64,000 nt of DNA from the IMG/VR virus record IMGVR_UViG_3300027851_000016, positions 27,153-91,152 of that record. One strand, 5' to 3'. Origin of the DNA: a virus. Position numbers and translations under genes: made by a program. Below, piece after piece: positions 12,702 through 63,168 of the stretch. Position 1 is the first letter of the stretch, and every line of letters starts with the position of its first letter. The notes under the pieces were generated by a model, which ran no database searches, was not told the DNA's origin, and was given only the letters and a program-made list of their open reading frames with translations.

Positions 12702-12833
12702 ATGAGTCTCGTACCACCGTCGAAGTTCGACCAGGGCAGGTTCGCTCTTGCATACCTGACGATTGTCATGACGGTCGCAGGGGCGTGCGGAGTCACATGG
12801 TTGGTGGCCAAGCTGTTTGGCATGCTTCCGTGA
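12702..12833 (+). CDS. Small membrane protein
   Basis: GAGGA SD; hydrophobic stretch; stop overlaps the TerL GTG. Confidence 0.5.
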   Translation: MSLVPPSKFDQGRFALAYLTIVMTVAGACGVTWLVAKLFGMLP

Positions 12834-15799
12834 TAGACCTGAACGACCTCCGACTGAAGCCGATGCTCGATGAGTTGACGCGTGGGTTCACGCAGTCGGA
12901 CATCGAACTGCTGAAGGCCGTGCTCAAGCAGAATCCTGGCAGCGAGATAGAGGTGCTGCAGGACCTGATGGGGTACACGTATAGGCACACGCCCGTACCG
13001 ACCCGCCAGTTCATCGAGGACCCGTACTACCTGGGGCTGCAGGGTCAGGTGTTCCCGAAGCTGCTGGATGACATCGAGGAGTTGTTCGAGGGGGAGTATG
13101 TCGAGGCGGTACTCACTGGCGCGATTGGGTGGGGTAAGGCGTGCAGCCTTGACACGCGGGTACCGACACGTCATGGGTGGACGACCTTTGGTGAAGTCAC
13201 GGTCGGGGACGAACTGTTCGATGAGCAGGGTAGGCTCTGTAAGGTAACCAAGAAGACAGAAGTCATGTACGACAGGCCCTGCTTCGAAGTCACGTTCTCA
13301 GATGGGACGAAGCTGGTTGCAGATGCGGAGCATCAGTGGCTTGCATCCGAGTGGTCTGAGCGAGCTAATGCTGCGCGGAGTGGGGGAGAGCTGCATGAGC
13401 GTGTGGTCACGACTGCGGAGATGGCAGCCAGCCTGAAGCACGGTCGAATGAACAACTGGGCTGTGCGGGTTGCAGAGGCACTGGACCTGCCAAAGCAGGT
13501 GCTACCAGTAGACCCATACGTGCTCGGTGTGTGGCTCGGAGACGGGAACTCAGCAGACGGTGCGTTCACGTGTTTCGACCCAGAGATTGTCGAGGAGATT
13601 CGCAGGCGAGGCTACGAGGTTCGTGAGCAGCACGCTTCGCAAGGAAGGTACACGATAGTAGGGCTGAAGGTGCAGTTGCGGGAGCTGGGCGTGCTTGGGA
13701 ACAAGCATGTGCCTGCCCTGTACTTTAGAGGTAGCATCGACCAGCGCACGGACTTGCTCAAGGGTTTGATGGATACGGATGGTTCGATTGAGACTTGTGG
13801 TCGTGCAGAGTTCGTCGGTGTGAGCAAAGCACTCGTAGAGTCCGTACGCGAACTCGCTGCAAGCCTCGGGCACAAGCCTGTGTGGTCAGAAGGAACAGCA
13901 CGTGTTGATGGCAAGGATTGTGGAGCAAAGTACCGAGTCCGATTCACGCCAGACACGCCTGTGTTCTGTTTGACTAGGAAGTTGGAGCGGCAACGCGTGG
14001 CGGGGAAGCAGGGACTGCGGAACAAGCGCAGGTACGTGACTGCTGTGGTTCCAGTAGAGAGTGTTCCAGTCAGGTGCATCGAAGTGGATTCACCATCGCA
14101 CTTGTTCCTGGTAGGTGACTGCTTCGTCCCGACGCACAACAGCACGTTCGCTGAGATAGCCCAGTGCCGCATGCTCTACGAAATCAGCTGCCTGAGAGAC
14201 CCGCAGAGGGTGTACGGACTGATGCGTGGGTCGGTCATCGTCCTGCTGAACGTCGGTGTGACGCGGACCAACGCCGAGAAGATTGTCTTCCAGGGGGTCA
14301 AGAACAAGCTGCACGCTGCCCCGTACTTCGTGGAGAAGTTCCCGTACGGGCCGTGGATGAACGAACTGAGGTTCCCGAACAACATCTGGCTGTTCCCCGC
14401 AACGCCGAGCGACAGTGGTGTCATCGGGTACAACGTCTTCGGCGGGGTCATGGACGAAGTGAACTTCATGAGCATCGTGGAGAAGTCGAACTCGTCTCGG
14501 GGTGGGACGGGTCGGTTCGACCAGGCGGAGACCCTGCACAAGTCTCTGATTCGACGGATGAAGTCCCGATTCATGAAGAAGGGCAAGCTCCCTGGCATCC
14601 TGCTGCAGATTTCGTCTAGTCGGTACCCCGAGGACTTCACCGAGCGCCGCATCAAGGAGGCTGAGGATGACCCGACGGTCTTCGTGCGTCGGTACAGCCA
14701 GTGGGACACGTTCCCCGAGGACAGATGGACTGGGAAGCGGTTCTGGATAAGCCTCGGAGACGGCACGGAACAGCCACGGGTGATACACGGCCCCGAGGAG
14801 CTGAAGGCGGCGGAGGACAAGGGCCTGCCCCTGTTGGATGTGCCCGAGGAGTTCGAGCGTGACTTCGAGGCTGACATCGACGCTGCGATTCGAGACCTGG
14901 CTGGTCGGCCTACGCTCACGATTCGCCCGTACATCCGCTACCGACACAAGGTGGCGGAGGCGCTGGCGCGGGGCGAGACCGAGTTGGGTCTGGTGCACCC
15001 GTTCTCGAAGACGGAGTCCACGCTGAAGGATGGCGGCTCGTTCGTACTGGAGAAGCTCGCCATCCCGAGGCTCAAGCAGCAGATTGCGAGTGGCACACTG
15101 GGGGACGTGGAACTGGCAGCAGCCAAGGACGAGCTTGCGTTCCTGAAGAGCAAGCCCCGCTTCGTCCATGCTGACCTCTCGGTCACGGGGGACAGCACGG
15201 GTATCGCGATGGGTTACGTCCGTGGGTACCGTGAGGTGGTCAGACGGAACGAGGCGGGGGAGCAGTACACGACGCGTATGCCCATCGTCGTGATTGAGTT
15301 CATGCTCAGGGTGAACCCACCGCAGAACGGCGAGATTGAGTTCGCTGACGTGCGGTCGCTCGTACTGGAGCTGCGGAGCTACGGGTACCCGATTCGAAGC
15401 GTCACGTTCGACTCGTTCCAGTCCCGTGACTCGATGCAGGCGTTCAAGCGGGTAGGAATCGACTCGTCGCACCTGTCGGCGGACACGAACCTTGAGGTGT
15501 ATGCTGCGTACAAGGATGCGCTCTACGAGGACAGGTTCATCACGTACCAGTACGACAAGCTGTTCGAGGAGACCATCCGACTGGAGAAGAACGAGAAGAC
15601 GGGAAGGGTGGACCACCCTGCGAACGGTTCGAAGGACGTGGCAGATGCGGTCGCTTGCGTATGCTACGGCTGCGTCAAGGACGGCATCAGGTCCCCCGCT
15701 CCGCCTCCGTCGTACGGCGACATGTCCACGCCACGACAGTCGTCAGCGGTGCCCACGATGGGGGAAGTGGAACCGAGAGTTCCCGAGATAGTCACGTAG
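12830..15799 (+). CDS. terL: Terminase large subunit (intein-containing)
   Basis: Walker A TGAIGWGK|ST split by an intein, Walker B GVMDEV, nuclease motifs HADLS and DHPANGSKDVADA. Confidence 0.93.
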   Translation: MIDLNDLRLKPMLDELTRGFTQSDIELLKAVLKQNPGSEIEVLQDLMGYTYRHTPVPTRQFIEDPYYLGLQGQVFPKLLDDIEELFEGEYVEAVLTGAIGWGKACSLDTRVPTRHGWTTFGEVTVGDELFDEQGRLCKVTKKTEVMYDRPCFEVTFSDGTKLVADAEHQWLASEWSERANAARSGGELHERVVTTAEMAASLKHGRMNNWAVRVAEALDLPKQVLPVDPYVLGVWLGDGNSADGAFTCFDPEIVEEIRRRGYEVREQHASQGRYTIVGLKVQLRELGVLGNKHVPALYFRGSIDQRTDLLKGLMDTDGSIETCGRAEFVGVSKALVESVRELAASLGHKPVWSEGTARVDGKDCGAKYRVRFTPDTPVFCLTRKLERQRVAGKQGLRNKRRYVTAVVPVESVPVRCIEVDSPSHLFLVGDCFVPTHNSTFAEIAQCRMLYEISCLRDPQRVYGLMRGSVIVLLNVGVTRTNAEKIVFQGVKNKLHAAPYFVEKFPYGPWMNELRFPNNIWLFPATPSDSGVIGYNVFGGVMDEVNFMSIVEKSNSSRGGTGRFDQAETLHKSLIRRMKSRFMKKGKLPGILLQISSSRYPEDFTERRIKEAEDDPTVFVRRYSQWDTFPEDRWTGKRFWISLGDGTEQPRVIHGPEELKAAEDKGLPLLDVPEEFERDFEADIDAAIRDLAGRPTLTIRPYIRYRHKVAEALARGETELGLVHPFSKTESTLKDGGSFVLEKLAIPRLKQQIASGTLGDVELAAAKDELAFLKSKPRFVHADLSVTGDSTGIAMGYVRGYREVVRRNEAGEQYTTRMPIVVIEFMLRVNPPQNGEIEFADVRSLVLELRSYGYPIRSVTFDSFQSRDSMQAFKRVGIDSSHLSADTNLEVYAAYKDALYEDRFITYQYDKLFEETIRLEKNEKTGRVDHPANGSKDVADAVACVCYGCVKDGIRSPAPPPSYGDMSTPRQSSAVPTMGEVEPRVPEIVT
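13139..14140 (+). mobile_element. Class 3 intein (334 aa) with a LAGLIDADG homing endonuclease
   Basis: Starts A-C-S-L-D-T and ends VPTHN|S. WCT triplet (HQW, VRCIEV, PTHN); LGVWLGDG and LKGLMDTDG. Confidence 0.92.
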
Positions 15800-42926: not shown

Positions 42927-43108
42927 AGACGCGGATTTGAGATGGGAAAGGGTGGTAGAGATGGGGAACATGGAGCGGACACTGAAGGAGCTTCTCGCCT
43001 TCGGATTCTGGTTCGTGTATGACAAGCACGTACTGCACCGTCCCTACACGTACGCGCGGTTCTACCGCGAGGCCCTGCAGGGTTAGACGAGAAGGAGATG
43101 TGGATTCG

Positions 43109-43381
43109 ATGAGCATGTCAGCAGAGCAGGTCAAGAAGGCACAGCGGCTGGTTGCGGACGGCAAGGTGCACAAGCTAGGAGAGCTTGAGTACCAGGTAGA
43201 TGGTCGTGGCGACACGTACATCGTCAAGCTGCACGACCACGGTCGGGCGAAGTCCTGCACGTGCCCCGCAGGCAGCCACTGGCGCAAGTCCAGCCTGCAC
43301 CAGACGGGTAAGCACGTCTGCTACCACATCGGCGCGGTCATGATGGCACGGAAGTCAGAGATGGGGGTGTGTGCACGATGA
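43109..43381 (+). CDS. SWIM zinc-finger protein
   Basis: CTCP...CYHIGAV. Confidence 0.75.
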   Translation: MSMSAEQVKKAQRLVADGKVHKLGELEYQVDGRGDTYIVKLHDHGRAKSCTCPAGSHWRKSSLHQTGKHVCYHIGAVMMARKSEMGVCAR

Positions 43382-43635
43382 GCAACATGAGCTACTGCAG
43401 GTTCGAGAACACCCGAGGTGACATGAGCGACTGCATCGAAGCGCTGGCTACGCGGGAGGCGGACCTGTCGCTCGATGAGTACCGTGCAGCACGTGGGATG
43501 CTCTCAGAGGTTATCGACTTCTTCGTTGATGAAGGCATCGTGGACGAGGCGGACGTGAACTTGCTTCGCCTTGGCAACTTGCTTGATGAGTGCCGCGAGC
43601 AGGAGTTCGGGACAGACGACGAGATGGAGGACTGA
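43378..43635 (+). CDS. Hypothetical phage protein
   Basis: Coupled ORF starting MSNMSYCRFENT. Confidence 0.7.
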   Translation: MSNMSYCRFENTRGDMSDCIEALATREADLSLDEYRAARGMLSEVIDFFVDEGIVDEADVNLLRLGNLLDECREQEFGTDDEMED

Positions 43636-43636
43636 G

Positions 43637-44074
43637 ATGGGCAAGAGAGTGTGCGTAGGGCGCGTGGCTGTGGACGCGGGGCTTATGTGGGTAGGGGACC
43701 CGTGCTACGTGATTGGCAAGGTCGGTGACTCTGACGAAGAGCGGTCGAAGGTCGAGTCATGGAATCAGGCGTGGTACGGCAAGGATGGTTCGTTCTGCGA
43801 CACGCTGGAGAGGATGGATGCAGAGCGGGCTGAGGATGACCCCGCCAGGAACACCGTGTACCCGTTCGAACCAGGCCAGAAGGTTGCCACTGGCATCGCA
43901 GTGAGCAGTGGTTGGGGTGACGGCGTGTACCCCGTCTATGTCGAGTACGAAGGTAGGCGGGTCAAGTCGGTCACCGTCGAGTTCATGGAAGACGACGAGG
44001 ACGAGGACTGTGATTGGCAAGAGGACGACGAAGAGTACGATGAGTCTGCCGAGTATGAGACTGGGGCGGAATAG
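43637..44074 (+). CDS. DUF4241-like protein
   Basis: VDAGLMWVGDPCY and SGWGDGVYPV. Confidence 0.6.
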   Translation: MGKRVCVGRVAVDAGLMWVGDPCYVIGKVGDSDEERSKVESWNQAWYGKDGSFCDTLERMDAERAEDDPARNTVYPFEPGQKVATGIAVSSGWGDGVYPVYVEYEGRRVKSVTVEFMEDDEDEDCDWQEDDEEYDESAEYETGAE

Positions 44075-44385: not shown

Positions 44386-44386
44386 G

Positions 44387-44671
44387 ATGGCGGAGATGGC
44401 CGATACGAAGCGCTGGGCGAAGTGTGAGTGTGGTCTGCACATGGAGCCGTTCAGTGCCTGCCGTGCACTGGAGATAGGCAACGACAAGGAGATGCGCGAC
44501 CGCATCCCGTACGACGGGTCCATCGGAGAGAAGTGTCCCGACTGCAATGCTCGTGCGGGTAAGATGCACCACCTCGGCTGTGACCAGTCTCGGTGTCCGT
44601 TCTGTGGTGGGCAGGAGTCGTTCTGTGACTGTGACCTTGACCAGATTGCTGTGCTGGAGAGGGTGGAGTAA
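44387..44671 (+). CDS. Cys-rich Zn-binding protein
   Basis: CPDC..HHLGCD..CPFCGGQ..CDC. Confidence 0.7.
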   Translation: MAEMADTKRWAKCECGLHMEPFSACRALEIGNDKEMRDRIPYDGSIGEKCPDCNARAGKMHHLGCDQSRCPFCGGQESFCDCDLDQIAVLERVE

Positions 44672-45834: not shown

Positions 45835-45887
45835 GATAGTAAGGTACTTTCCAGACGCGAATGAGATGGGAAGAGGTGGGAACGTAG

Positions 45888-48280: not shown

Positions 48281-48644
48281 CCGCATAGACGAGTTGTTAC
48301 GTGGAGGTGAACCGATGAGTATCCGAGACATCATCGAGAAGTGGCATCTCATCTCCACGAACTACGCGCGGCACGGCTACACTGCTGCGGTTCATGGTCG
48401 CGACTTCGAGGAGATGCGTGACGACTTCGCTTCTGCGCTCGAAGAACTCTCCCTCATGGAAGCCGTGTGTGAGGCGGCAGCGGACGTAGCGGACGAAGTG
48501 ACGAATGGCGTCCCGCTGGACGACAACGTAATCGAGTTCATGGATGAGGATAGCGACTATCTGTTCATCGAGAAGTCGCTTATACGGAAGCTCGACGACG
48601 CGCTTGATAGCCGCGCCGCCTACCGAAAGGAGCGTGGACTGTGA
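48273..48644 (+). CDS. Hypothetical protein
   Basis: ORF with SD; atypical codon use. Confidence 0.6.
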   Translation: MSDRIDELLRGGEPMSIRDIIEKWHLISTNYARHGYTAAVHGRDFEEMRDDFASALEELSLMEAVCEAAADVADEVTNGVPLDDNVIEFMDEDSDYLFIEKSLIRKLDDALDSRAAYRKERGL

Positions 48645-48794: not shown

Positions 48795-49172
48795 ATGAGT
48801 GAGACACCCTGCCCGTTCTGCGGTCAGATTCACGGCGATGACATGTCGGAGTGCGCTGACGGATTCACATCACGCCACAACGACGAGGGTATTGGCCTCA
48901 CCGCCAATATCGAACGCCTGGAAGCCGACCTCAGTACCGTCAAGGACGCTTACGATGACAAGCACCGTGCCTATGCGCTGCTGCGGGAAGCGTACCAGCA
49001 ACTCCTTGCCGAGCGTGACGCGCTACTTGACGCGCTTAGGTGGTGCGGCGGGTCTGCCGACTTTGGGCACGGAGGACAGGCACGCGAGGGATGGCAGCGC
49101 AAGGTTGCGCCGCTTTTCGCCGAGAGGGTGAGGAACGCGCCGCTTCTCGCCGAGAGGGTGATACGACGATGA
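48795..49172 (+). CDS. Hypothetical coiled-coil protein
   Basis: GAGGAGG SD; N-terminal CPFC. Confidence 0.6.
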   Translation: MSETPCPFCGQIHGDDMSECADGFTSRHNDEGIGLTANIERLEADLSTVKDAYDDKHRAYALLREAYQQLLAERDALLDALRWCGGSADFGHGGQAREGWQRKVAPLFAERVRNAPLLAERVIRR

Positions 49173-53752: not shown

Positions 53753-53969
53753 CGCAACGACCGAGAAGATAGTCGAGTTCTTCGACCACGATGTGTGCGC
53801 CAAGTGCGGTGGGGAGTGTTGCAAGCATTGCTCTTGCCTTGCGCACCCAGATGACTTCGGAAGCACGCCTGAGCAGGTCATGGAGAACCTGGAGGCAGGG
53901 ATGGCCCAGAAGGACTACGCAATCCGTGTGGGTGTCTCAGACGAGAAGGAGATGGGTGACGATGCGTAA
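53745..53969 (+). CDS. Cys-cluster protein
   Basis: CAKCGGECC. Confidence 0.55.
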   Translation: MADATTEKIVEFFDHDVCAKCGGECCKHCSCLAHPDDFGSTPEQVMENLEAGMAQKDYAIRVGVSDEKEMGDDA

Positions 53970-59346: not shown

Positions 59347-59537
59347 GTGGTCAGCCATTGTTTGGGCATGTGCCAGCAGCATTGCAAAGCAAGTGCCCGT
59401 GCAGGGAGTGTGCGCCGCCGAAGCGTAAGCCTGGGTGCCACGATGATTGCGCGGAGTACCAGGAGTGGCACGTGCTGTGTGGGAAGGCTCGTGAGGCGCG
59501 TGCGTATGTGTGGCAGGATAGCAAACGTAGGTGGTAA
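59343..59537 (+). CDS. Small Cys-rich protein
   Basis: CPCREC...GCHDDCAEYQEW. Confidence 0.6.
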   Translation: MSGQPLFGHVPAALQSKCPCRECAPPKRKPGCHDDCAEYQEWHVLCGKAREARAYVWQDSKRRW

Positions 59538-59555
59538 TCATCTTCAGATTACCGC

Positions 59556-59584
59556 TTGACACAGACTACGTTATATGCCACGAT
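59556..59584 (+). promoter_or_regulatory. Conserved early promoter P5
   Basis: TTGACA-CAGACTACGTTATATGC-CACGAT. Confidence 0.82.
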
Positions 59585-59633
59585 AGTAGTAGAGAACCAT
59601 CCCGCACACGGTGGGATGGTAGACGTGAAGGAG

Positions 59634-59888
59634 ATGGGGAAAGTGGCCGAGTACAACGGGACAGTGAGGATAGCGGGGACGGAGTACAGGATTCGGCAGG
59701 CTACAACGCCAGCTGAACTTGAGGCTAACGACCTGCCCGAGGCGGCAGAGTGGATGCGTTCGATGGGCTGGCTCGAAGACCTCGTACTCGAAAGCCCGCA
59801 CGGGCATGTGGTCCACGCTGCGCTCATCGCCAAGGGTGCGTATGAGTTCTTCGACCCAGACCAGTTCCACCTGATGGACGCACAGTAG
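59634..59888 (+). CDS. Hypothetical protein
   Basis: First ORF after P5. Confidence 0.6.
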   Translation: MGKVAEYNGTVRIAGTEYRIRQATTPAELEANDLPEAAEWMRSMGWLEDLVLESPHGHVVHAALIAKGAYEFFDPDQFHLMDAQ

Positions 59889-59898
59889 GCTATGATGA

Positions 59899-60075
59899 GC
59901 ATGAGCACGGTGCTCAGTTCGGTGAACGAGTCAGCGCTAAAGCAGGGGCTGGTCGGGTACGCCCGACATGCCGTGGAGCGTACCCCCATCTCCGCTCCGC
60001 ACGGCGACAGCAATCGCGCTACGGGTAGTCCTGCGCCCAATGGCTCGTTCATCGACCTGAGCACCGTGTTCTTGT
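59899..60075 (+). ncRNA. Unclassified structured RNA (~170 nt)
   Basis: About 30-bp terminal stem with G-U pairs enclosing a multi-way junction with a UACG-loop hairpin. Confidence 0.7.
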
Positions 60076-60094
60076 TGTGGAGGGAGATGGGGAC

Positions 60095-60895
60095 GTGCAA
60101 CTGAATGCAGTAGAGCAGAGTGGGGTTCGGCTGTCCTTGCACACGGACGACTCGCCCGAGAGTCCTCGCGAGTGGTCCAACCTGGGCACGATGGTGTGCA
60201 GCCACAGGCGGTACGACCTGGGAGACGAGCAGGCGAACACGGAGGATTACGTCGGCTGGGACTCGTGGCTGGCTGGTGAGGTGCTCGACAAGCACGAGGC
60301 TGGGTCGGTCGTGTTCCTGCCGCTGTACCTGTACGACCACAGTGGCATCACGATGAACACGACGGGGTTCAGTTGTCCGTGGGATTCGGGGCAAGTCGGC
60401 TGGATATGGGCGACCAAGAAGACGTTCCGTGAGGAGACGGGGTACACCGAAGCGGAGCTGTTCAGTAAGGATTCGCACCGCAGGCCCGAGGTTGGGGAGC
60501 ACGTCAAGGTCAAGGACTTCGAAGGAGAGGGCTGGGCGAAGGTCACGCTGGTGACCAAGGAGAACTACGTCGTGGACTTCGACTACTGCAAGACGCCCAC
60601 GGCGAGGGACCCGCAGCGGCAGTGGGCGGTGCCCTTTGCCAACGTAGTGGAGGTCATGGCGAATCGCGCCGAAGAGATGCTCCGAAACGAGGTCAAGAGC
60701 TACGACGACTACCTGCGTGGGAACGTGTACGGGTATGTGCTGGAGCGGAAGGTCGAGTGTTCCTGCTGCGGGAACGTCACGTGGGAGCACATCGACTCCT
60801 GTTGGGGGTTCTACGGTGACGACGCAGTCGAGCAGATGAAGGAGAGTGTTGGGGAGTACGAAGAGTTGTTCGATGAGTTGAAGACGCGTAACTGA
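60095..60895 (+). CDS. Hypothetical phage protein
   Basis: SPREWSNLG, PLYLYDHSG, WDSGQVG, SCWGFYG. Confidence 0.75.
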   Translation: MQLNAVEQSGVRLSLHTDDSPESPREWSNLGTMVCSHRRYDLGDEQANTEDYVGWDSWLAGEVLDKHEAGSVVFLPLYLYDHSGITMNTTGFSCPWDSGQVGWIWATKKTFREETGYTEAELFSKDSHRRPEVGEHVKVKDFEGEGWAKVTLVTKENYVVDFDYCKTPTARDPQRQWAVPFANVVEVMANRAEEMLRNEVKSYDDYLRGNVYGYVLERKVECSCCGNVTWEHIDSCWGFYGDDAVEQMKESVGEYEELFDELKTRN

Positions 60896-60927: not shown

Positions 60928-61539
60928 ATGGGCTTTGAAGAGGTAGTGTGCGGACTCATGCTGGGCGATGGTTCCCTGGAGAGGCGCGGGAACGCTCGAC
61001 TGAAAGTGCTTCGAAAGCAGGAGCATGCAGAGTACAACGTGTGGTTGAAAGCATTGCTGATAGATGACTTCGACTTCGGGCCAGACCAAGAAAGCCATAC
61101 GCAGGATGCACGTACGGACAAGGAGTACCACGGGTCCCGCATCAAGACACATGCAGATGAGCGCCTGACCGTGCTGCACACGTTGTGGTACGCGGACAAG
61201 AAGGTAGTGCCTGTTGCTTTTGTGGAGCAGTACTTCACGGCGTTGTCCCTGGCTATCTGGTACTTGGATGATGGCACGCTGACGAGGACGGGGAAGCAGG
61301 GTTACTACCGTACAGTTCTTGCAACGAACTGCTTCAGTCATGAAGAGGTCGCGTATCTGAGTGAGTTGCTTGCGCGGAGGTTTGGAATCAAAGCGCATGT
61401 AACACCGTGGCAAGGAAGATACGTACTGCGCATGTTTCAAGAAGAGAGCACGAAGTTATTAGACGTGGTCGGCTCTGTGTTGCCTGCACAAGGACTTGAG
61501 TGCATGCAGTACAAGCTGCAGATGATGGGAAGGTTGTGA
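60928..61539 (+). CDS. Free-standing LAGLIDADG homing endonuclease
   Basis: GLMLGDGSL, LSLAIWYLDDG, TNCFS; MQYK terminus. Confidence 0.88.
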   Translation: MGFEEVVCGLMLGDGSLERRGNARLKVLRKQEHAEYNVWLKALLIDDFDFGPDQESHTQDARTDKEYHGSRIKTHADERLTVLHTLWYADKKVVPVAFVEQYFTALSLAIWYLDDGTLTRTGKQGYYRTVLATNCFSHEEVAYLSELLARRFGIKAHVTPWQGRYVLRMFQEESTKLLDVVGSVLPAQGLECMQYKLQMMGRL

Positions 61540-62961: not shown

Positions 62962-63168
62962 ATGCGACTGCACAAGACGACGCTGGTCATTTGGACGGAC
63001 TTTGACCCATCTGACCTGAGCCTCGAAGAGCTTGGCAGGGAAGCCGACCAGGGCGCGGGGTACTGCTCGCATGCAACGGCTGAGTGGGTCGATGGGCTGG
63101 CGAAGGACGAGCATGTCACAGATGGCTTGCTGGAGTTCTTCCAGGTACGTGATGAGGAGCGTGGATGA
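62962..63168 (+). CDS. Hypothetical protein
   Basis: GGAGG SD. Confidence 0.55.
   Translation: MRLHKTTLVIWTDFDPSDLSLEELGREADQGAGYCSHATAEWVDGLAKDEHVTDGLLEFFQVRDEERG

Follow-up and report, generated by a model that had tools for sequence, protein, structure and literature searches.

Pairing of an anti-Shine-Dalgarno sequence with the Shine-Dalgarno (SD) sequence of the same transcript sequesters ribosome sites in riboswitch expression platforms, in RNA thermometers and, over a long range, in the RNA phage MS2, and RsaE/RoxS are small RNAs of Gram-positive bacteria that present C-rich loops. The 6C (B11) RNAs of Actinobacteria are further C-rich-loop sRNAs of Gram-positive bacteria (PMC6486639). 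The passage on c4 in PMC8198154 places this antisense RNA of phages P1 and P7 in the immI operon, c4-icd-ant (Citron & Schuster 1990, as cited there). In T4, a subset of the early genes shares the ribosome-site word GGAG and is switched off through that word after the early period (PMC3014915).

The locus described here lies in a window of 64,000 nt, bases 27153-91152 of a 91,152-bp IMG/VR virus record (positions are those of the window; those prefixed L107 lie outside it). CheckV estimates the record to be 100% complete, and a near-identical second contig of 83.7 kb is known. Our own gene calls number about 132, almost all on the + strand, which is G-rich (G 34% vs C 25%). PHROG matches divide the genome into a late block and an early/replication block (Table 1), the latter encoding DnaD-, DnaC-, and DnaB-like proteins, primases, DNA polymerase, helicases, recombinase, and exonuclease. 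A search for the host via the endolysin was uninformative. Between two genes of one early operon stands a structured element with a loop that is complementary to the ribosome sites of both. We suggest that it is plausibly an anti-SD regulator, acting in cis first and possibly in trans.

Some features elsewhere in the genome deserve separate mention. A free-standing LAGLIDADG homing endonuclease gene (60928-61539; Pfam PF03161, E 1e-31) adjoins the 3' end of the 266-aa gene that follows the element and overlaps the start of the next ORF. An 805-aa early protein encoded outside the window (L107:12299-14716) is an unusual fusion of a terminase-like/DnaC-like ATPase region with a helicase domain (PHROG 16, 19299, and 50) and is distinct from the true large terminase (12797-15799). 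Two uncalled gaps, 44386-44671 and 48803-49172, each contain a single frame whose codon score is positive (+0.32 and +0.18 per codon) and probably hold small uncalled genes. A 225-nt intergenic region of 69% GC outside the window, directly 3' of the primase gene (L107:5794-6020), ranks second in the genome for structure (z -4.8); with four direct copies of GGGTAGGACA(G) and G/C-rich hairpins behind them, it resembles an iteron array and is a candidate replication origin. The 76-nt gap 5' of the DNA polymerase gene holds a perfect 17-bp GC-rich hairpin without a U tract (L107:9845-9885, z -4.2), which could be a terminator or a processing site.

Table 1. Features of the window and of the early block, with predicted structures of the element
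Feature	Position	Strand	Details
Late block	~10.8-42.4 kb		large terminase to endolysin; PHROG matches
Early/replication block	42.8-64 kb, continuing into genome 1-26 kb		PHROG matches
Promoter family, copies in window	42903, 45829, 52963, 55877, 59579 (P5)
Promoter family, copies upstream of window	L107:11878, 14746, 18111
Promoter P5	59556-59591	+	TTGACA, 14 nt, TGC, CACGAT
Two GAGAUGGG copies, P1 leader	42939-42966	+	31 nt and 12 nt before ATG 42970; second ends 3 nt short
GAGAUGGGGGUG	43358-43369	+	begins 20 nt before ATG 43378, 9 nt between; complements whole 12-nt loop (one G-U pair)
GAGAUGGG	43634-43641	+	AUG of motif is start codon 43637; different register
GAGAUGGG, P2 leader	45863-45870	+	25 nt before ATG 45888
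GGAGAUGGG	53948-53956	+	5 nt before ATG 53962; 94-aa gene, codon score 0.51
Further GAGATGGG copies	32349, 55335, 63660		ORF-internal
Upstream target GGAGAUGGGG, AAA, GTG 59643 (81-aa gene)	59630-59645	+	largely unpaired in predicted leader fold
ORF, 70 codons	59892-60104	+	spans element; in frame with TAG of upstream gene
Structured element, 179 nt	59898-60076	+	34-bp closing stem enclosing four small hairpins
Closing stem, 34 bp	59898-59933 with 60041-60076	+	fold and inverted repeat
Hairpin H2	59973-60000	+	8-bp stem GUGGAGCG/CGCUCCGC; 12-nt loop UACCCCCAUCUC (59981-59992)
Anti-SD 10-mer CCCCATCTCC (RNA: CCCCAUCUCC)	59984-59993	+	exact complement of GGAGATGGGG
Downstream ribosome site GUGGAGGGAGAUGGGG and start GTG 60095 (266-aa gene)	60077-60097	+

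An extended Shine-Dalgarno word of the early genes

The early block carries eight copies of a conserved promoter family, and all copies of the family lie in this block. They read TTGACA, 14 nt, TGn, and CACGAT (an extended -10), followed by GATAGTA, which is conserved at the likely transcript start; a pattern search of IMG/VR for the family gave no matches. The first gene behind P5 encodes 81 residues (GTG 59643 to TAG 59888) and is separated by 206 nt, in an operon that is otherwise tightly packed, from the 266-aa gene that starts at GTG 60095 (PHROG 6186, no function assigned). The original prediction held that CCCCATCTCC in this gap is perfectly complementary to GGAGATGGGG next to both genes, and both its coordinates (59984-59993 against 60083-60092 and 59630-59639) and the complementarity are correct. 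It had placed the motif at the ribosome site of the downstream gene and at the start of the upstream one; at both genes the motif is the ribosome site (SD region plus spacer), but its ATG is not the start codon, since the likely starts are the two GTG codons, which follow 12-13 nt after its first base.

On the coding strand GGAGATGGGG occurs four times genome-wide, each time 12-14 nt before a start codon, and its sole reverse-strand copy in the 91-kb genome is the loop of hairpin H2 of the element. The shorter GAGATGGG is present 12 times in the window against 3.3 expected (none of 100 shuffles reaches 12), and 10 of its 15 + strand copies in the genome stand at most 35 nt upstream of a called start (binomial p 3e-10), such 35-nt upstream windows making up 5.2% of the genome. 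The six GAGATGGG sites to which the original prediction had pointed (42939, 42958, 43358, 43634, 45863, and 53949) are all where it put them. The one at 43358 is the best loop partner of all start regions, engaging all 12 loop bases at -23.5 kcal/mol; the one at 53949 begins 13 nt before its ATG; and the register of the one at 43634 is probably coincidental. Four more copies of GAGATGGG lie outside the window, two of them as the full GGAGATGGGG 12-14 nt before starts, and both of these stand behind further copies of the promoter family. Four of the motif sites belong to the first genes behind conserved promoters. The commonest 10-mers of the start regions are GAGATGGGGA and GAAGGAGATG.

The suspected enrichment in early over late start regions is borne out: GAGATGGG precedes 8 of 79 early or replication genes and none of the 52 late or modification genes (Fisher p 0.02), whereas the canonical GGAGG is equally frequent in both classes (42% vs 44%). 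We regard this class-specific extended SD word of the early genes as a solid result, one that asks for a reader, be it RNA or protein. The observation from which the work began, the antisense match between the loop and this word, is itself confirmed and statistically non-random.

The structured element and its predicted pairing with the next ribosome site

The element is the most structured segment of the 91-kb phage genome. Its minimum free energy is -105 to -107 kcal/mol (z -5.3), and its gap has the strongest z among 37 intergenic gaps. In exact register, the 183-nt element stands far outside the genome background, at -105 kcal/mol against a genome mean of -65 (sd 7.4); among 2,022 sampled 183-nt genome windows the most stable has -106.3 kcal/mol at 70% GC and the best coding window -88. 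The closing stem also shows up as an inverted repeat (34 nt, 85% identity), and the element as a whole is built of inverted repeats throughout. Hairpins H1 (with a UACG tetraloop), H2, H3, and H4 lie within the stem. The - strand folds 14 kcal/mol worse than the + strand. Where the closing stem departs from Watson-Crick pairing, at five pairs, each is a G-U on the + strand, which points to a structure of the coding strand at the RNA level. A DNA-level site or cruciform was rejected as the main reading, as every wobble pair favours the + strand RNA; a retron ncRNA was rejected because no reverse transcriptase lies nearby, and a CsrA-type sponge because the loops have no GGA.

The element fits no Rfam family. 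The whole window gave no match to any of 4227 Rfam models at the gathering score; a cmscan of 59500-60300 with E up to 10 gave only a chance match to a plant miRNA precursor (E 0.095) and two weaker ones, and a tRNA/tmRNA scan gave none. Searches of GenBank phages by megablast and blastn yielded no homologue of the element, and a covariance model of its core run against five records (its own and the four nearest virus records) found only itself. The protein encoded downstream has thousands of relatives, the best at no more than 59% identity, and following it by synteny through IMG/VR and the JGI metagenomes turned up no relative with a structured element upstream. The upstream protein has a 72%-identical relative of 80 aa that is absent from IMG/VR. 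Judged by its capsid protein (71% identity), the closest relative has a GC content of 42%, and the motif does not stand out there.

Hairpin H2 presents its loop with a predicted unpaired probability of about 0.95 (range 0.75-0.98). The original prediction had put the whole 10-mer in the loop; this holds for 59984-59992, while C59993 forms the first pair of the stem. The match to the downstream ribosome site extends well past the loop: between 59984-60000 and 60077-60092, 16 bp form around a single bulge, and for 59981-60001 RNAduplex reaches 17 bp, likewise with a single bulge, at -33.7 kcal/mol. Of 12,980 21-nt windows sampled across the genome, none attains this value against the same site, the best having -27.1 kcal/mol. 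The other sites share only the 10-12-nt word; the longer match is confined to the adjacent downstream one. The anti-SD is thus complementary to the SD of the next gene, as would be expected of a cis switch. In addition, the 5' arm of H2, GUGGAGCG, equals the downstream GUGGAGGG at seven of eight positions; with it, the three parts of a classic translational switch (SD look-alike, anti-SD, and SD) lie in one transcript.

The idea that the element hides the ribosome site in cis finds support in this complementarity and in the 3' half, which when taken alone folds into a hairpin that closes the site (-51.9 kcal/mol, z -2.9; 2 of 200 shuffles do as well), but it does not agree with the best fold of 59885-60130 (-113.2 kcal/mol), in which the closing stem is formed and most of the site is free. 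When the helix of anti-SD and SD is imposed on the same segment, the energy is -100.2 kcal/mol, 13 above the best fold, so that a trigger would be needed. With the closing stem intact, the loop would lie some 95 Å from the site, with a linker of 8 nt; we infer from this geometry that pairing in cis would need refolding and would not be a simple pseudoknot.

Our model treats the element as a structured stretch between two cistrons of the early P5 transcript, in which the loop and 3' arm of H2 (59981-60000) would serve as the anti-SD and the ribosome site of the next gene (60077-60092) as its primary partner. In fold A, the predicted ground state, the 34-bp stem would be closed, the loop displayed, and the downstream site open, with H2 holding half of the anti-SD against the SD look-alike GUGGAGCG. 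In fold B, the anti-SD would form its helix with the site over 17 bp and close it. As folds A and B would be mutually exclusive, the element would set or gate translation of the downstream gene. Occupation or removal of the 5' arm, for which ribosomes and processing are conjectural agents, would favour fold B. Since the displayed loop of 10-12 nt matches the extended SD of four to six other early starts, it could also pair in trans, as a secondary activity. What the analysis establishes is the sequences, the predicted folds with both alternative structures, and the statistics; we infer beyond them that the two segments may pair in the cell, that pairing would be repressive, and that some trigger would set it in motion.

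We place the probability of such a cis-acting anti-SD element gating the downstream gene, with possible secondary pairing in trans, at about 0.35. Several points weigh against it. The site is open in the predicted ground state, and leaving that state would take a trigger. Long GC-rich sequences often have alternative folds within ~12% of the best, and a local inverted duplication would give equal complementarity without any function. An ORF whose codon usage resembles that of genes runs across the element, and the searches for a homologue of the element found none.

Alternative explanations

We rank gating in cis first, a non-regulatory inverted duplication second, a regulon acting in trans third, and coding or read-through last. 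The explanations overlap, as a functional anti-SD could have arisen by inverted duplication and could sit in a translated ORF.

The closest competitor supposes no regulatory pairing at all. The element would be a quasi-palindrome that arose by local inverted duplication or template switching and serves some other end, for example RNase III processing, stabilisation or insulation of the mRNA, or weak termination; H2 would be an inverted copy of the neighbouring ribosome site, and its other matches would follow from the common SD word. The inverted repeats of which the element is made throughout are as this account would have them, and so is the gradation of the matches, 16 of 17 positions at the nearest ribosome site and the 10-12-nt word alone elsewhere. 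AAGGAGAUGG is complementary at nine of ten positions to what we take to be the usual 3' tail of bacterial 16S rRNA, so its recurrence partly reflects a plain strong ribosome site and can be explained with no RNA partner. Repeated ribosome-site cassettes also exist elsewhere in the genome. A second one, GGAGCGTGGA(CT), is found at three unrelated genes (48616-48640, 63143-63167, and L107:7426-7450), where the start codon behind it is GTG at two and ATG at the third (63168), and repeated extended ribosome-site words therefore appear to be a general habit of this genome. The class-specific SDs of T4 can be read by proteins such as RegB, and by the same RegB/RegA logic the reader here could equally be a protein (PMC3014915). 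Against the duplication account, the anti-SD falls exactly in the largest accessible loop, and the strand-specific G-U pairs together with the very low free energy suggest selection on RNA. On a rough judgement, two stable alternative folds also seem unlikely for a neutral event. We hold the duplication account to be a possible, though tentative, second choice.

A regulon acting in trans appears unlikely. Here the element would be released as a stable RNA whose ends are protected by the 34-bp stem and whose loop pairs with GGAGAUGGGG(G) at early ribosome sites, shutting off several early mRNAs as the RNA builds up and translation falls. H2 does offer an accessible seed that is complementary to several mRNA start regions: five of them pair with the real loop at -20 kcal/mol or better, whereas composition-matched shuffled loops (n = 1000) average 0.42 and reach five once. 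All strong sites span about -20 to -1 relative to the start codon and are predicted to be moderately accessible, and the motif is confined to early genes, four of its sites lying at first genes behind conserved promoters. A U-rich run after the GC-rich part of the stem also counts in favour, and C-rich-loop sRNAs that bind many mRNAs with no chaperone are known (6C, PMC6486639). On the other side, a consensus scan found neither a promoter of the element's own nor a canonical terminator, the extended match is to the adjacent site only, and a possible coding ORF spans the element. One RNA gene would moreover face about eight equally strong promoters, a stoichiometry that would need unusual RNA stability. 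The energies also call for care. At a threshold of -14 kcal/mol any C-rich loop performs equally well; duplex energies computed for the whole hairpin fail to tell targets apart in a genome so rich in GC; and 9.4% of random 179-nt genome windows carry a 10-mer antisense to a word that is present at least four times. The two other multi-copy antisense 10-mers of the element were set aside as background, as they lie in stems and match ordinary coding DNA. The further suggestion that the loop recruits ribosomes received no support.

In its most developed form, trans pairing would let a lytic phage time the shut-off of its early genes through one very stable RNA, encoded within and flanked by its own targets, whose apical loop is a class-specific anti-SD that out-competes the 30S subunit only on mRNAs with GGAGAUGGGG. 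We consider this timing scheme improbable, more so than trans regulation in general.

The last explanation is that the stretch is chiefly a gene for a 70-aa protein, or a C-terminal extension made by read-through of the in-frame UAG of the upstream gene, in which case the loop would be the codons Thr-Pro-Ile-Ser and the strong structure would begin 9 nt after the stop. The ORF (59892-60104) fills the intergenic gap exactly and in the frame of the upstream gene; its ATG lies 3 nt past the upstream stop, its own stop 7 nt past GTG 60095, and the source pipeline called it as a gene. Its codon log-odds of +0.31 per codon are reached by none of 3000 shuffles and lie at about the 10th percentile of small genes; the interior alone scores +0.21 (P 0.02). 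However, its GC3 periodicity derives for the most part from the paired arms, in which the third codon positions face one another, and is lacking in the interior. No SD precedes the ATG; the only match among 5.8 billion proteins and 1.8 billion representatives is the ORF itself; and the Atlas model of the product (pLDDT 0.46) has no confident fold. The 72%-identical relative of the upstream protein ends at 80 aa, and no coding window of the genome is nearly as structured as the element. As to the layout, 59886-59894 combines an in-frame TAG with stable structure 9 nt on, and in this it is like elements that stimulate recoding or read-through. The analysis yielded no evidence that the upstream TAG is read through, and a conserved read-through fusion has no support, though gene callers would stop at the TAG anyway. 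Coding and non-coding roles are not mutually exclusive, but as the chief function of this stretch we judge coding the least probable of the four.

Comparison with known regulators

Were the pairing functional, a private ribosome-binding word would mark a subset of the early genes and one RNA loop would control it, a simple, portable means of timing gene expression that would add a self-targeting regulatory RNA in an uncultured, high-GC phage lineage. Were it not, the locus would serve as a warning that C-rich loops in GC-rich genomes easily look antisense to ribosome sites and that structured 'RNAs' may overlap real ORFs.

For gating in cis, the reading that we prefer, the nearest parallel is with the anti-SD/SD switches, which likewise combine an SD look-alike, an anti-SD, and an SD in one transcript; two exclusive folds are also predicted here, with 13 kcal/mol between them. 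The element differs from them in having no evident ligand pocket or temperature-labile helix, in that its open state is the predicted ground state, and in the unusual length of its closing stem. With c4 of P1 and P7 it has no homology of sequence or structure, the Rfam C4 model being unmatched at E up to 10, and it is twice as long and closed by the 34-bp stem; related sites also flank c4. In the account of PMC8198154, c4 is like the element a phage RNA that lies in the same operon as its target and upstream of it, and its loops complement the region around the ribosome site of the gene that follows. P1 uses c4 for lysogenic immunity, whereas no lysogeny module was seen here in the parts of the phage examined.

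The 6C and RsaE-type sRNAs share with the element an accessible C-rich hairpin loop directed at G-rich ribosome-site regions of several mRNAs. The element is nevertheless no member of the 6C family, as it has no Rfam match; it has a single specific loop in place of repeated C-boxes, and it is encoded by a phage and aimed at that phage's own genes. With T4 RegB/RegA it has in common that a particular ribosome-site word belongs to a subset of the early genes, but the T4 readers are proteins, a nuclease and a repressor, while the candidate reader here is an RNA loop. If the loop does time early genes in trans, it would be an RNA-based equivalent of T4 RegA/RegB.
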